Positions 18,101-24,243 of a stretch of DNA of 64,000 nt are shown here, in pieces. Location of the stretch: the NCBI RefSeq assembly GCF_003334305.1, contig NZ_QOWS01000024.1; one strand, 5' to 3'. The notes beneath the pieces are model-generated. The model saw only the letters and a list, made by a program, of their open reading frames with translations, searched no databases and was not told the DNA's origin. A program made the position numbers and the translations under genes. Within the stretch, counting starts at the first letter, position 1, and every line of letters starts with the position of its first letter. The DNA comes from Escherichia coli (GTDB taxonomy: Bacteria > Pseudomonadota > Gammaproteobacteria > Enterobacterales > Enterobacteriaceae).

Positions 18101-19054
18101 TTAACCTATCTCCTGTAACGCATGTCTCTGGCGTTCGACGATATTGGTCCACAAATTGTCTTTATCGTCAGTCCACAAATTAATCAGCAAGGCAAAAAAG
18201 CGTTCTGCTGCCGGAGAAAGCACGGCATCTTTGCGGCGAATAATCCCCAATGTCCGACGTATAACGGGTTCCACCAGTGGAATACCAATAATCGAAGAAT
18301 AGGGCGCATGGGGCATTGCCAGACCAGGAAGCGCCGAAATCCCCAGTCCCGCCTCTACCAGTCCTAATGACGTCGAAAGATGACGCACTTCGTAAAACCA
18401 GTCCAGCTTCCAGGGCTTGTCGGCTAGCTGTTGTTCTATCAACAATCGGTTGCCGCTGGAGGAACGTACGCCAATCATTTTGTAACCCACTAACTCCTGC
18501 CATTCTACAAGCTGCTTTTTGGCCAATGGATGGTCACGCCGACAGGCCAGCACGAATGGCTCGTTGACCAGTGGGGTAAAATCAATGGATGAATTTGTGA
18601 CGTTGTTCATGTTTATGCCAAAGTCTGATTCGTTACACAGCACCGATTCCATGCAATTATTCGTGCCTTGTTCCAGAATCCGCACTTTAATATTGGGATA
18701 CAGCTCATTAAATTTACCGATTGCCAGCGGTAAAAAATAAAATACTGCGGTCGGAATACACGCTAACGTCACCATACCACGATGATAAGCATTCATATCA
18801 CGAATATTAAAAAGCGTTTCATCGAATTTCTTTATTAATTCCCGCGCCTCCGGGAGCAACCTTTTTCCTGCTTTTGTTAACGTAACCTTGCGAGTTTTAC
18901 GCTCAAATAGTTGAATATGTAAATCTTCCTCCATCTTTTTTATTCTTCGCGTTAATGCAGGTTGCGTAATATTGAGTAATTTAGCAGCATTGTTAAATGA
19001 ACTGGACTCTGCCAGTATGACAAATGCCTTCATACTTGATAATTCATGCTTCAT
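18101..19054 (-). CDS. ybhD: LysR-family transcriptional regulator
   Basis: ORF track 18101..19117; start trimmed to MKHELSSMKAFVILAESSSFNNAAKLLNITQPALTRRIKKME (LysR HTH); exact start uncertain (19054 or 19033). Confidence 0.8.
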   Translation of the reverse strand: MKHELSSMKAFVILAESSSFNNAAKLLNITQPALTRRIKKMEEDLHIQLFERKTRKVTLTKAGKRLLPEARELIKKFDETLFNIRDMNAYHRGMVTLACIPTAVFYFLPLAIGKFNELYPNIKVRILEQGTNNCMESVLCNESDFGINMNNVTNSSIDFTPLVNEPFVLACRRDHPLAKKQLVEWQELVGYKMIGVRSSSGNRLLIEQQLADKPWKLDWFYEVRHLSTSLGLVEAGLGISALPGLAMPHAPYSSIIGIPLVEPVIRRTLGIIRRKDAVLSPAAERFFALLINLWTDDKDNLWTNIVERQRHALQEIG

Positions 19055-19237
19055 TATTACTCCGGAAAATGGAAGCGACGATTTTGGGTGGCTGGTCGTT
19101 AAAAATTTTAACTGCATTTAGCCAACTTAAATTAATGAAAAAATGTTATTAATCGTTGAGCTAAAGTCATTAGAGATGCTTTGTCCTTAATGTAACCATA
19201 TCGCAATAAGTTATGTTTTTAAATTGAGGGCATTATT

Positions 19238-20290
19238 ATGAAAAAAATACCCTGCGTGATGATGCGAGGTGGAACCTCGAGGGGCGCGTTCCTGTTAGCG
19301 GAACATTTACCCGAAGATCAAACGCAGCGCGATAAAATATTGATGGCAATTATGGGTTCCGGTAACGATCTGGAAATTGACGGTATTGGCGGCGGTAATC
19401 CACTGACCAGTAAAGTCGCCATTATTAGCCGTTCCAGCGATCCGCGTGCTGATGTTGATTATCTGTTTGCTCAAGTTATCGTCCATGAGCAACGTGTCGA
19501 TACCACGCCTAACTGCGGCAATATGCTTTCTGGCGTTGGGGCATTCGCCATTGAAAATGGTTTGATTGCAGCGACATCACCGGTCACCCGTGTGCGTATC
19601 CGCAACGTCAATACGGGTACGTTCATCGAAGCTGATGTGCAAACGCCAAATGGTGTTGTCGAGTACGAGGGTAGTGCCAGAATTGACGGCGTACCGGGTA
19701 CTGCCGCACCGGTTGCGCTCACTTTCCTGAATGCCGCTGGAACCAAAACCGGAAAAGTTTTCCCGACTGATAATCAGATTGATTATTTTGACGATGTCCC
19801 GGTGACCTGTATCGATATGGCGATGCCAGTCGTCATTATTCCGGCTGAATATCTGGGAAAAACAGGTTATGAATTACCGGCGGAACTGGATGCCGACAAA
19901 GCATTATTAGCCCGCATTGAATCTATCCGTCTACAAGCGGGTAAAGCAATGGGCTTAGGTGATGTCAGTAATATGGTTATCCCTAAACCTGTGCTTATTT
20001 CTCCAGCGCAGAAAGGCGGGGCAATTAATGTGCGTTATTTTATGCCGCATTCTTGCCATCGCGCGCTGGCGATAACCGGTGCTATTGCTATTTCCAGTAG
20101 TTGTGCATTGGAAGGCACCGTCACCCGACAAATCGTCCCTTCTGTAGGATACGGCAATATCAATATTGAACACCCCAGTGGTGCGCTCGACGTTCATTTA
20201 AGTAATGAAGGTCAGGATGCCACGACGTTACGCGCATCTGTTATTCGGACAACCAGAAAAATATTTTCCGGTGAAGTTTATCTTCCCTGA
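19238..20290 (+). CDS. ybhH: PrpF/AcnD-accessory family isomerase-like protein
   Basis: ORF track 350 aa, MKKIPCVMMRGGTSRGAFL; divergent from ybhD. Confidence 0.85.
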   Translation: MKKIPCVMMRGGTSRGAFLLAEHLPEDQTQRDKILMAIMGSGNDLEIDGIGGGNPLTSKVAIISRSSDPRADVDYLFAQVIVHEQRVDTTPNCGNMLSGVGAFAIENGLIAATSPVTRVRIRNVNTGTFIEADVQTPNGVVEYEGSARIDGVPGTAAPVALTFLNAAGTKTGKVFPTDNQIDYFDDVPVTCIDMAMPVVIIPAEYLGKTGYELPAELDADKALLARIESIRLQAGKAMGLGDVSNMVIPKPVLISPAQKGGAINVRYFMPHSCHRALAITGAIAISSSCALEGTVTRQIVPSVGYGNINIEHPSGALDVHLSNEGQDATTLRASVIRTTRKIFSGEVYLP

Positions 20291-20365
20291 AAAAATTCGT
20301 TGTCAGGATAAGGACAATCAATAAAGGACTTCTGTATGAGTCATACAGAAAGAACAGGATTTTAA

Positions 20366-21799: not shown

Positions 21800-21800
21800 A

Positions 21801-21926
21801 TATACTCGTCATACTTCAAGTTGCATGTGCTGCGTCTGCGTTCGCTCACCCCAGTCACTTACTTATGTAAGCTCCTGGGGATTCACTCGCTTGTCGCCTT
21901 CCTGCTACTCGAATTATTTAGAGTAT
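21801..21926. repeat. ERIC/IRU element (enterobacterial repetitive intergenic consensus)
   Basis: Contains ATGTAAGCTCCTGGGGATTCAC (ERIC1R primer sequence) and the reverse complement of AAGTAAGTGACTGGGGTGAGCG (ERIC2); terminal inverted repeat ATACTC...GAGTAT. Confidence 0.8.
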
Positions 21927-21981
21927 ATCCATTTATTATCTTTCTGCGCACTTCACGGTGCGCAGATATCGGGAGCATTTG

Positions 21982-24243
21982 ATGATCAAGTTATCTGAAA
22001 AAGGCGTGTTTCTCGCCAGTAATAACGAAATAATTGCCGAAGAACATTTCACCGGCGAAATTAAAAAAGAAGAAGCCAAAAAAGGCACTATTGCCTGGTC
22101 TATTCTCTCTTCGCATAATACGTCCGGAAATATGGATAAACTTAAAATTAAGTTTGATTCATTAGCCTCTCACGATATTACCTTTGTTGGTATTGTACAG
22201 ACCGCTAAAGCGTCCGGAATGGAACGTTTCCCGCTGCCGTATGTGCTGACCAACTGCCATAACTCACTCTGCGCCGTCGGCGGCACCATTAACGGTGATG
22301 ACCATGTTTTTGGTTTATCGGCGGCCCAGCGTTATGGCGGTATTTTTGTGCCTCCGCACATTGCGGTCATCCATCAATATATGCGTGAGATGATGGCAGG
22401 CGGCGGCAAAATGATCCTCGGGTCAGACAGCCACACCCGTTACGGTGCATTAGGGACAATGGCAGTCGGTGAGGGTGGCGGTGAGTTGGTAAAACAGCTG
22501 CTTAATGACACCTGGGATATCGACTATCCGGGCGTGGTTGCGGTGCATCTGACCGGAAAACCTGCGCCGTATGTGGGGCCACAGGATGTGGCGCTGGCTA
22601 TCATTGGCGCGGTGTTCAAAAACGGTTACGTCAAAAACAAAGTCATGGAGTTCGTTGGACCGGGCGTTAGCGCGCTCTCTACCGATTTCCGTAACAGCGT
22701 TGACGTGATGACCACGGAAACCACCTGTTTAAGCTCCGTCTGGCAAACTGATGAAGAAGTGCATAACTGGCTGGCGCTGCACGGTCGCGGCCAGGATTAC
22801 TGCCAGCTTAACCCTCAACCGATGGCGTACTACGATGGCTGCATCAGCGTTGATTTAAGCGCCATCAAACCAATGATTGCGCTGCCGTTCCACCCGAGCA
22901 ACGTGTATGAAATCGACACACTGAACCAGAACCTGACCGACATTCTGCGTGAGATTGAAATTGAGTCCGAACGCGTGGCGCACGGTAAAGCCAAACTCTC
23001 GCTGCTGGATAAAGTGGAAAATGGTCGCCTGAAAGTGCAGCAGGGGATTATCGCGGGCTGTTCTGGCGGTAACTACGAAAACGTCATCGCGGCGGCGAAT
23101 GCACTGCGCGGTCAATCCTGTGGCAATGACACCTTCTCGCTGGCAGTTTACCCGTCATCACAGCCGGTGTTTATGGATCTCGCCAAAAAAGGTGTGGTAG
23201 CAGATTTGATTGGCGCAGGCGCAATCATCAGAACCGCGTTCTGCGGCCCATGCTTTGGCGCGGGCGATACGCCAATCAACAACGGTTTGAGTATTCGCCA
23301 CACCACGCGTAACTTCCCGAACCGCGAAGGCTCTAAGCCAGCTAATGGGCAGATGTCAGCGGTGGCGTTGATGGACGCTCGTTCTATCGCTGCGACTGCG
23401 GCAAACGGTGGCTATTTAACCTCTGCCAGCGAACTTGATTGCTGGGACAACGTGCCGGAGTACGCCTTCGATGTAACGCCGTATAAAAACCGTGTTTATC
23501 AGGGCTTTGTGAAAGGGGCAACTCAGCAACCGCTGATTTACGGACCGAACATTAAAGACTGGCCGGAATTGGGTGCGCTGACTGACAATATCGTCCTGAA
23601 AGTGTGCTCGAAGATCCTCGACGAAGTGACCACCACCGACGAACTGATTCCTTCCGGTGAAACCTCTTCTTATCGTTCAAATCCGATTGGTCTGGCGGAG
23701 TTTACCCTGTCACGCCGCGATCCCGGTTATGTTGGCAGAAGTAAAGCGACTGCTGAGCTGGAAAATCAGCGTCTGGCGGGGAATGTCAGCGAGCTGACAG
23801 AGGTGTTTGCGCGCATTAAGCAGATTGCTGGTCAGGAGCATATTGATCCGCTGCAAACTGAAATTGGCAGCATGGTATATGCGGTGAAACCAGGCGATGG
23901 TTCTGCGCGTGAACAGGCGGCGAGCTGCCAGCGTGTGATTGGCGGTCTGGCGAATATTGCCGAAGAGTACGCGACTAAACGCTACCGTTCTAACGTCATC
24001 AACTGGGGGATGTTACCGCTGCAGATGGCGGAAGTGCCAACCTTTGAAGTGGGGGATTACATTTACATCCCTGGCATTAAAGCGGCGCTGGATAATCCGG
24101 GTACGACGTTTAAAGGTTATGTGATCCATGAAGATGCGCCGGTAACGGAAATTACGCTCTATATGGAAAGTCTGACTGCTGAAGAGCGCGAGATTATCAA
24201 GGCGGGTAGTTTGATTAACTTCAATAAAAACCGTCAGATGTAA
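21982..24243 (+). CDS. ybhJ: aconitase-family protein
   Basis: ORF track 21958..24243; start trimmed to [23 protein letters not shown] (753 aa). Confidence 0.85.

Follow-up and report, generated by a model that had tools for sequence, protein, structure and literature searches.

We have analysed a stretch of 64,000 nucleotides of Escherichia coli DNA (contig NZ_QOWS01000024.1 of the assembly GCF_003334305.1; hereafter, the window), and we comment here on the locus found at its positions 18101–24243. There, ybhD, a gene for a LysR-type regulator, is transcribed divergently from three co-oriented genes, ybhH, ybhI and ybhJ. Such an arrangement, along with the positions and identities of the open reading frames (ORFs), had been given in a preliminary description of the window made from the sequence; the ORF list bears it out, and the start of ybhD matches the intergenic span 19055–19237. 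The 6143 bp match E. coli strain A7 with 100% identity; in the RefSeq annotation of that strain, ybhD, ybhH, ybhI and ybhJ are labelled as a LysR family regulator, '4-oxalomesaconate tautomerase', 'anion permease' and 'hydratase', respectively. In A7, modC-ybhA-pgl flank the locus on one side and ybhC-ybhB-bioA on the other. The family assignments made earlier (YbhD to the LysR family, YbhH to the PrpF family, YbhI to the DASS family and YbhJ to the aconitase family) are all far beyond chance. The same description considered the substrate not established, and this still holds, the RefSeq and NCBIfam names being generic in 2026. It is also important to distinguish what is already known from what is new: every E. 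coli genome has these genes annotated, the structure of YbhH is solved and the YbhD regulator is partly characterised, while the tie between YbhJ and a large clade of gut-anaerobe aconitases encoded in citrate-enzyme operons is new, as is the substrate hypothesis that results from it.

At least 80% of the 6143-bp stretch was found in 5316 of the 5426 complete E. coli genomes (98%). The order of the four genes is common to E. albertii, two Citrobacter species and Edwardsiella hoshinae; in E. albertii and Citrobacter, the flanks of ybhD-ybhHIJ are unchanged as well. A mobile island is ruled out by these shared flanks, by the 98% presence in E. coli and by the lack of mobility genes, so that the locus was rightly described as a metabolic module of the core genome. 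The ratio of non-synonymous to synonymous substitution rates (dN/dS) in comparison with E. albertii was 0.038 for ybhH, 0.024 for ybhI and 0.029 for ybhJ, with dS of 0.39–0.58, which is unsaturated. Compared with Citrobacter and Edwardsiella, it was 0.03–0.09 for all four genes. Such low values across the genes mean that the module is under strong purifying selection and is maintained rather than decaying.

The gene ybhJ (21982–24243, plus strand; the mechanically called ORF begins at 21958) encodes a four-domain [4Fe-4S]-type aconitase-family hydro-lyase of 753 aa. It carries the Pfam domains Aconitase (PF00330, residues 41–470, E 6e-88) and Aconitase_C (PF00694, residues 638–684), and it belongs to an NCBIfam family of its own, PRK11413 (1541 bits), named just 'hydratase'. 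Its score with the bacterial aconitase model PRK07229 is 343 bits against a cutoff of 612, and it stays under every aconitase equivalog cutoff. With the AcnD model TIGR02333, it reaches 63 bits against a cutoff of 1420, which places it outside AcnD; prpB and prpC are absent among the neighbours of the locus in A7 (pgl, ybhD, ybhC and ybhB).

The active site of YbhJ was mapped with a HMMER alignment to pig mitochondrial aconitase and an alignment of 79 sequences. The cluster cysteines C358, C421 and C424 of the pig enzyme correspond to C360, C421 and C424 of YbhJ, while pig H101, H147, D165, S166, H167 and E262 correspond to H93, H131, D149, S150, H151 and E246, and the catalytic S642 corresponds to S641. 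All four pig arginines R447, R452, R580 and R644 are kept, as R443, R448, R565 and R643. Besides the three cysteines, 13 other catalytic or substrate residues are conserved in YbhJ; the cysteines, S641, H93, H131, D149, S150, H151 and E246 are invariant in 5 enterobacterial and approximately 70 anaerobe sequences. In pig aconitase, the four arginines help to bind the three carboxylates of the substrate, and their retention argues for a tricarboxylate as the probable substrate of YbhJ. The preliminary description had named the absence of Fe–S ligands or substrate residues as something that would speak against its proposal; three cysteines, the Ser and His residues and four arginines are all in place. 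An AlphaFold2 model of YbhJ, built with 29 sequences, had a mean predicted local distance difference test score (pLDDT) of 91 and a predicted template modelling score (pTM) of 0.88, and its best fold matches were entries of mitochondrial aconitase (TM score of 0.69–0.70 over the full length). Overall, YbhJ is, as modelled, a complete four-domain protein of the aconitase type that forms a separate clade.

A profile scan of one genome per species returned 596 relatives of YbhJ. The best 80 relatives after Enterobacterales all came from gut or rumen anaerobes of at least three phyla: Lachnospiraceae, Enterocloster, Hungatella, Butyrivibrio and Megasphaera; Collinsella; and Synergistales. These homologues share 67–74% identity with E. 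coli YbhJ, and in a neighbour-joining tree the enterobacterial sequences were the sister group of a tight anaerobe clade. Enterobacterial and anaerobe YbhJ are identical at all 21 active-site positions checked, with 8 fixed differences in the whole protein, all conservative. Judging from the identity of the active-site positions and from how few and conservative the fixed differences are, the two groups are likely isofunctional. When the Megasphaera homologue was used as a query, the best 120 matches were all at least 80% identical, and every named one belonged to Megasphaera.

ORFs were called in 80 loci (designated here by L numbers) and clustered, and recurrent neighbours were named by NCBIfam and Pfam; the counts below refer to the approximately 53 non-Collinsella anaerobe loci. 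In approximately 19 of them, citrate synthase (PRK14032, above cutoff) and/or isocitrate dehydrogenase genes are adjacent to the ybhJ homologue, often co-oriented and tightly spaced. Thus, in L028, the ybhJ homologue is followed after 54 bp by the citrate synthase gene and, after a further 2 bp, by the isocitrate dehydrogenase gene, all co-oriented; in Synergistales, the partner is an NADP-dependent isocitrate dehydrogenase passing its equivalog cutoff. By analogy with such operons, this first pattern would place the YbhJ clade at the aconitase position of the oxidative tricarboxylic acid (TCA) branch. At 8 loci, the ybhJ homologue adjoins the citrate lyase genes citD-citE-citF(-citG), usually with a LysR gene nearby. 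A subset of these (L017, L058 and L061) combines a CitMHS/MatC-family carrier, a PrpF-family isomerase, the YbhJ homologue and citrate lyase, with a divergent LysR gene in L017 and L061. The CitF and CitD proteins of the neighbours pass their equivalog cutoffs, and CitE is below that of citE (364 vs. 443). A third pattern, seen in some loci (L032), consists of PrpF, the YbhJ homologue and an IsoDH-family enzyme; in the metagenomic L005, PrpF, a more distant YbhJ relative and an IsoDH-family enzyme stand under a divergent LysR gene. The partner isomerase of Firmicutes shares 34–39% identity with YbhH and is closest to the 3-methylitaconate isomerase Mii (369 bits). Two branches of PrpF-like isomerases and two carrier families have thus been joined to one aconitase clade in separate lineages. 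The idea of a tricarboxylate substrate, already voiced in the preliminary description, is strengthened by these citrate-enzyme neighbourhoods of YbhJ orthologues in other phyla.

Some relatives of YbhJ stand apart from these patterns. In Collinsella (L059–L086), the gene is fixed between the heat-shock genes dnaK-dnaJ-hspR and clpB, with no metabolic neighbours. P0121, a distant YbhJ-like cluster, lies on a short contig. The proteins P0148 and P0156 (approximately 39% identity; L006:8001–10966 and L007:1175–4287) are without the cluster cysteines, and next to their genes lie those for a Macro-domain protein and an FGGY kinase, which follow them; such proteins may have become pseudo-enzymes and serve another role. 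The contexts of these more distant clusters, P0121 included, are uninformative for E. coli.

The first gene of the putative operon, ybhH (19238–20290, plus strand), encodes an allylic isomerase that belongs to the PrpF superfamily and, within it, to the LigU/GalD branch of oxalomesaconate isomerases. The Pfam PrpF domain (PF04303) covers YbhH over the full length (E 4e-168), whereas the score with the PrpF equivalog TIGR02334 is 187 bits against a cutoff of 440.55, so that the protein is a member of the superfamily but is not PrpF proper. The preliminary description, comparing YbhH with PrpF and the pair with AcnD/PrpF, was therefore correct as to the superfamily and the logic of the pairing, but neither protein is a member of the family drawn on for the comparison (63 vs. 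1420 for YbhJ and AcnD; 187 vs. 440 for YbhH and PrpF), YbhH being instead a LigU/GalD-branch protein with a solved structure. This structure is the PDB entry 6OTV, deposited as 'Putative isomerase YbhH', of which we found no mention in the searchable literature. The nearest characterised structure is that of LigU, the (4E)-oxalomesaconate delta-isomerase (6P3H/J/K), with 45.5% identity. K59 and C93 of YbhH align with K66 and C100 of LigU (6P3J), which we take to be the catalytic pair. Aconitate isomerase, PrpF and LigU all perform a base-catalysed allylic proton shift.

The product of ybhI (20366–21799, plus strand) is an anion transporter of the DASS family, apparently from the branch of CitT, TtdT and DiT. 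Its score with the DASS model TIGR00785 (residues 23–468) is 553 bits against a cutoff of 198.6, and it shares 33% identity over the full length with the citrate/succinate antiporter CitT of E. coli. Its best PDB matches are the chloroplast dicarboxylate transporters DiT1 and DiT2.1 (285 and 266 bits), followed by the bacterial DASS-family protein 6WTW/6WU1 (239 bits). The nearest solved relatives are taken to be exchangers, and because of this YbhI is more likely an exchanger than a Na+ symporter; of the preliminary assignment, the DASS family stands, while the symporter mode probably gives way.

The regulator gene ybhD (18101–19054, minus strand) encodes 317 aa from the annotated start, which we used here, while the mechanically called ORF extends to 19117. 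Many LysR-family NCBIfam models match residues 4–292 of YbhD, an ordinary regulator of this type, and none of them reaches its equivalog cutoff. The best match, PsrA, an L-proline-binding regulator of Serratia, was rejected as an orthologue (253 bits vs. a cutoff of 540), and the PsrA paper is silent on any ybh-like locus. An AT-rich control region of 183 bp (19055–19237) separates ybhD from ybhH and contains a dyad and two conserved blocks. The dyad, ATTAAT-N11-ATTAAT at 19131–19153, is a candidate LysR box of the T-N11-A type and occurs once in the 64-kb window, with 0.01 occurrences expected; the blocks are AAAGTCATTAG (19163–19173) and ATGTAACCAT (19190–19199). Amid sequence that has diverged, the dyad and both blocks are shared by E. 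coli, E. albertii, Citrobacter and Edwardsiella; across all four, the dyad takes the form ATTAAT-N11-A(C/T)(T/C)AAT. Its centre lies 96 bp upstream of the ATG of ybhH, about where a LysR regulatory site would be expected, and YbhD may bind the dyad. A promoter/terminator scan gave 6 promoter-like sites vs. 9.0 in shuffles, with none in the ybhD–ybhH region, and we propose no promoter. GC content is down to approximately 0.41 at 18500–19500, which takes in the divergent promoter region and ybhD over its 5' half, compared with approximately 0.50–0.55 in the flanks.

Published work bears on this regulator. In an RNA-seq study of 2022, deletion of ybhD led to strong up-regulation of ybhH (PMC9068703), and because of this derepression YbhD appears to be a repressor under laboratory conditions. 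The same study reported one ChIP-exo site for YbhD and the possibility of control by Nac (PMC9068703). The locus had been put forward as the nearest thing in the window to an undescribed system; it is true that no function has been named, but in the light of this work on ybhD the system should be regarded as partly described.

Several elements occupy the spacers between the genes. The 75-bp ybhH–ybhI spacer contains a stem-loop (20329–20351, plus strand) with a perfect 10-bp stem and no T-run 3' of it on the plus strand. E. albertii retains this hairpin, as does Citrobacter youngae with an altered loop; its role is presumably in mRNA stability or processing. In the ybhI–ybhJ spacer there is an enterobacterial repetitive intergenic consensus (ERIC, also intergenic repeat unit, IRU) element of approximately 124 bp (21805–21928), with exact matches to the ERIC1R and ERIC2 primers. 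Because of this insertion, the spacer is longer in E. coli and E. albertii (182 bp) than in Citrobacter and Edwardsiella (63–73 bp), where the element is absent; ERIC might change the stability or translation of the ybhJ portion of the transcript. Another stem-loop (21943–21966, plus strand) with a 10-bp stem lies just 5' of the ribosome-binding site of ybhJ, the 60-nt region having a folding energy of -18 kcal/mol, and a hairpin of other sequence is found at the equivalent position in Citrobacter youngae. The promoter/terminator scan found no terminator-like site in the ybhH–ybhI or ybhI–ybhJ spacers. Co-transcription of ybhH, ybhI and ybhJ is likely, with ybhJ presumably joining the ybhHI transcript.

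At the 3' end of the putative operon, between the convergent ybhJ and ybhC, there is a cluster of repetitive extragenic palindromes (REP), or bacterial interspersed mosaic element (BIME), at 24246–24489 with three REP-like units. On the plus strand it gave three matches to the REP-derived Rfam family naRNA4, the best of 59.4 bits with a gathering score of 59.5. Opposite ybhI (20831–21082, minus strand), a match to the Yersinia antisense RNA Ysr283 reached 38 bits vs. a gathering score of 58, for which a conserved coding sequence is the most likely reason. The Rfam scan revealed nothing beyond REP-derived and sub-threshold matches.

Putting these observations together, we tentatively read ybhD-ybhHIJ as a catabolic or salvage operon under the control of a repressor, serving an unsaturated tricarboxylate for which trans-aconitate, or a compound very close to it, is the most likely candidate. 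We favour this reading with a confidence that falls slightly short of even, and we infer within it what the substrate and the inducer are, which reactions the enzymes catalyse and that YbhI works by exchange. According to our scenario, YbhD would sit on the conserved dyad and silence ybhHIJ; release would come from the substrate or from an intermediate of the pathway. YbhI would then import the anion (trans-aconitate or a near analogue), and a C4-dicarboxylate such as succinate or malate would probably leave the cell in return. YbhH, as a Lys/Cys enzyme of the PrpF superfamily, would carry out a 1,3-allylic proton shift, converting the imported isomer into the cis (maleate-type) enoate, which YbhJ, as an oxygen-labile [4Fe-4S] aconitase, would hydrate to citrate or isocitrate. 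The product would pass to citrate lyase (citCDEFXG) under anaerobiosis or, alternatively, to isocitrate dehydrogenase; in strain A7, citCDEFXG-citT lie approximately 150 kb from the ybh locus. A ybhJ deletion was found in 2014 to have low NADPH and to be rescued by NADPH, like an icd deletion (PMC4054840), and this would fit an isocitrate-supplying role of YbhJ. In addition, ybhJ mRNA was up 18-fold in E. coli fed with algal biomass (PMC10972114).

There are, however, a number of observations that weigh against this scenario. To begin with, E. coli is not known to grow on trans-aconitate. Next, YbhJ differs from canonical aconitases by five clade-specific changes in the active site: Q72H, D100C, N258V, N446T and S643A (H64, C92, V242, T442 and A642 of YbhJ). 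Furthermore, in L005, L025, L054 and L055 a YbhJ-type gene is found close to that of a canonical PRK07229-type aconitase, and such a co-occurrence argues that the two are not redundant. A second YbhJ subfamily, with approximately 48% identity and Pro at the position of His64, is encoded in larger operons (L052 and L005). The genes of these and of a similar operon (L052:8567–15872, L025:4741–16963 and L005:199–10202) include those for a canonical PRK07229-type aconitase, an RraA-like protein resembling the aldolase of 4-carboxy-4-hydroxy-2-oxoadipate (CHA), a Mii-like isomerase, a divergent IsoDH-family enzyme and a CitMHS/MatC carrier; in L025 there is also a Pgl-like beta-propeller lactonase. 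These gut Firmicute operons look like an undescribed multi-step tricarboxylate pathway, and the YbhJ clade may not be a plain aconitase everywhere.

From here it is a short step to suppose that the module works by the same logic on another aconitate-like or maleate-type acid (2-methyl-aconitate, homoaconitate, an enoate derived from hydroxycitrate, or itaconate converted via citraconate to citramalate), with YbhJ being a specialised hydratase. The five substitutions and the operons just described (the canonical aconitase, joined in some cases by the RraA-like aldolase, the divergent IsoDH-family enzyme and the lactonase-like gene in L005, L025 and L052) speak for such a possibility. So does the closeness of the Firmicute partner isomerase to Mii, which in Eubacterium barkeri feeds the aconitase-family dimethylmaleate hydratase; moreover, the score of the neighbouring CitE under the citE cutoff leaves room for a citramalate-type lyase. 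Nevertheless, all four tricarboxylate-binding arginines are kept, orthologues with identical active-site residues are encoded in citrate synthase–isocitrate dehydrogenase operons, and the neighbouring CitF and CitD pass their equivalog cutoffs. On balance, we regard another acid as rather unlikely.

Here we would also like to comment on pgl (17065–18060), the gene for a 6-phosphogluconolactonase with a 7-bladed propeller, which abuts ybhD. A distantly related lactonase-like gene is part of the Firmicute cluster in L025 (14534–15694). The adjacency of pgl to ybhD is probably a coincidence, as the upstream genes differ in Edwardsiella, though a lactone precursor of the substrate is conceivable.

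The isomerase raises a further difficulty for trans-aconitate. YbhH passes the equivalog cutoff of the 4-oxalomesaconate tautomerase model NF033377 (515 vs. 440 bits), and it is nearer to LigU (45.5%) than to the Mii-like isomerases found beside Firmicute YbhJ homologues (34–39%). This closeness means that the native substrate of YbhH could be a 2-oxo tricarboxylate, as far as sequence similarity tells. In formal terms, exchanging one carboxyl of aconitate for an oxalyl group gives oxalomesaconate. It might then be that YbhH is a true 4-oxalomesaconate isomerase and that the operon scavenges 2-oxo-tricarboxylates from the ring cleavage of gallate or protocatechuate, with YbhJ replacing LigJ/GalB and forming 4-carboxy-4-hydroxy-2-oxoadipate. 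The conserved equivalents of K66 and C100 would agree with this, as would the fact that L025 and L052 encode, near their YbhJ-type genes, RraA-like proteins with a relationship to CHA aldolase. However, none of the genes of the LigU/GalD pathway (for 2-pyrone-4,6-dicarboxylate (PDC) hydrolase or gallate dioxygenase, oxalomesaconate (OMA) hydratase and CHA aldolase) was found within 6 kb on either side in A7 or in the enterobacterial loci L008–L011, and there is no homologue of ligI, ligJ, ligK, galA, galB or galC in or beside the locus. E. coli is not known to have this pathway. In addition, oxalomesaconate arises from O2-dependent dioxygenases, whereas the YbhJ clade is found mainly in strict gut anaerobes, and the genes around the orthologues are those of citrate enzymes and not lig or gal genes. 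Such an explanation thus seems to us improbable.

An assignment to malate comes from the LysR study itself. The ybhD deletion showed a growth phenotype solely with added L-malate, and the authors assigned the gene as 'L-malate utilization related' (PMC9068703). Accordingly, the locus might handle a C4-dicarboxylate (L-malate) or 2-oxoglutarate, with YbhI as the functional core and YbhH and YbhJ as accessories; the presence of DiT1 and DiT2.1 among the closest solved relatives of YbhI is in line with this. Malate, though, requires neither an allylic isomerase nor an Fe–S hydro-lyase with four substrate arginines, and ybhH, ybhI and ybhJ are conserved together and equally constrained. The L-malate phenotype fits better with malate as the counter-substrate of a derepressed exchanger than as the substrate of the pathway. 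We therefore hold an operon for malate or 2-oxoglutarate to be decidedly improbable.

Finally, there is the question of whether YbhJ is an enzyme at all. In the work of Blank, Green and Guest from 2002, inactivation of ybhJ reportedly left the residual aconitase activity of an acnAB mutant unchanged; this was reportedly a knockout without effect on background activity and not an assay of the YbhJ protein. Such an outcome would be expected of a repressed operon and an oxygen-labile enzyme. With reference to this work of 2002, a later paper describes YbhJ as 'a catalytically inactive paralog', and a ybhJ deletion mutant was H2O2-sensitive there (PMC4054840). In some E. coli (e.g., P0036), there is also a 634-aa ybhJ allele with an in-frame deletion of 119 codons (418–536; window positions 23233–23589), without C421, C424, R443 and R448. 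On these grounds, together with the cysteine-less YbhJ-like proteins P0148 and P0156 of other lineages, YbhJ might be taken for an aconitase paralogue that has lost catalysis and possibly acts in regulation or stress, in a cluster that is a silent relic in E. coli. We find this highly improbable, since the catalytic residues are all intact, dN/dS is 0.03 and the deleted segment is missing from just 50 of the 5426 complete genomes; the allele probably marks a minority E. coli lineage that has lost the YbhJ enzyme.

Returning to the operon for trans-aconitate or a near analogue, it is tempting to go one step further and to suppose that YbhJ represents an unrecognised class of genuine aconitase. 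Many anaerobes of gut and rumen (Lachnospiraceae, Hungatella, Megasphaera, Synergistales and Collinsella) would depend on it to turn citrate into isocitrate, and it would be this enzyme which in E. coli and its relatives has been joined with a LigU-like isomerase and a CitT-like exchanger in a normally silent operon for plant trans-aconitate, making YbhJ the third true aconitase of E. coli. We consider this extension possible but clearly on the doubtful side. If true, it would account for the 2002 knockout without a change in activity. The hypothesis of an anaerobic aconitase with an aconitate isomerase and an exchanger, induced by a plant tricarboxylate, would for its part, if right, correct the published statement that YbhJ is catalytically inactive. 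Moreover, it would give a function to a family that NCBI calls just 'hydratase', common as it is in the microbiomes of gut and rumen, altering reconstructions of the oxidative TCA branch there, and trans-aconitate from grasses, cane and beet would join the carbon sources that E. coli obtains from the diet in the gut. If that hypothesis is wrong, what remains is an ordinary LysR-controlled carboxylate operon of unassigned specificity. In either case, four conserved and strongly constrained genes of the best-studied bacterium, so far without an assigned function, are now provided with a specific and cheaply testable hypothesis.

We might now place the locus among systems that are better understood. 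By analogy, the logic of ybhD-ybhHIJ would be that of AcnD/PrpF, Mii/dimethylmaleate hydratase and TarRAB. The last of these, TarR/TarAB of Bacillus velezensis FZB42, is a proven system of trans-aconitate assimilation, which consists of a LysR regulator, a PrpF-family aconitate isomerase and an importer (PMC11495376). In both cases, a LysR gene stands beside an operon with a PrpF-superfamily isomerase and a carboxylate importer, and the conversion of an unsaturated tricarboxylate into a TCA-cycle intermediate, which takes place in the Tar system, is what we propose for ybh. There are differences as well: TarR is an activator, whereas the data on YbhD point to repression; the Tar importer belongs to the major facilitator superfamily (MFS), whereas YbhI belongs to DASS; the Tar system is without a dedicated aconitase; and YbhH comes from the LigU-like branch. 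With AcnD-PrpF of the 2-methylcitrate cycle, as in Shewanella oneidensis (PMC5690661), the ybh locus shares the pairing of an Fe–S aconitase-family dehydratase with a PrpF-superfamily isomerase, the latter providing or receiving the right enoate isomer. Unlike AcnD-PrpF, it is without prpB and prpC neighbours and has a transporter and a LysR gene. As for LigU/GalD (6P3H/J/K), the former is the closest characterised homologue of YbhH and makes a 1,3-allylic shift on a tricarboxylate; the hydrolase, the LigJ/GalB hydratase, CHA aldolase and dioxygenase of that pathway are not at the ybh locus, though, and the partner hydratase there is of the aconitase family.

Canonical aconitases (mitochondrial Acn, those of the PRK07229/TIGR01342 type, AcnA and AcnB) have in common with YbhJ the domain order 1-2-3-linker-4, the three cysteines, the catalytic Ser, the His/Asp pairs and the four arginines. 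They also occupy citrate synthase–isocitrate dehydrogenase operons, as YbhJ orthologues do. What sets YbhJ apart is an identity of approximately 21% to mitochondrial aconitase and approximately 100 extra residues in comparison with the 650-aa bacterial type. A different kind of relationship connects the locus with CitT-citCDEFXG of E. coli itself: YbhI is a paralogue of CitT, and citrate lyase is likely the downstream enzyme. Unlike ybh, however, CitT-citCDEFXG is under the DpiAB two-component system and has neither an isomerase nor an aconitase.

The last parallel is with Acidaminococcus fermentans. To our knowledge, fermentation of trans-aconitate by E. coli has not been reported. In A. fermentans, its course via citrate, oxaloacetate and pyruvate has been worked out biochemically, according to the genome paper, which cites Hartel and Buckel 1996 (PMC3035267). 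In the genome of this organism, MatC-type carriers are found beside 'aconitate hydratase domain' genes (PMC3035267). The gene sets around ybhJ homologues in gut Firmicutes match this route, comprising a citrate-type carrier, an isomerase, an aconitase and citrate lyase. E. coli, in comparison, has the carrier, the isomerase and the aconitase at the ybh locus and citrate lyase elsewhere.

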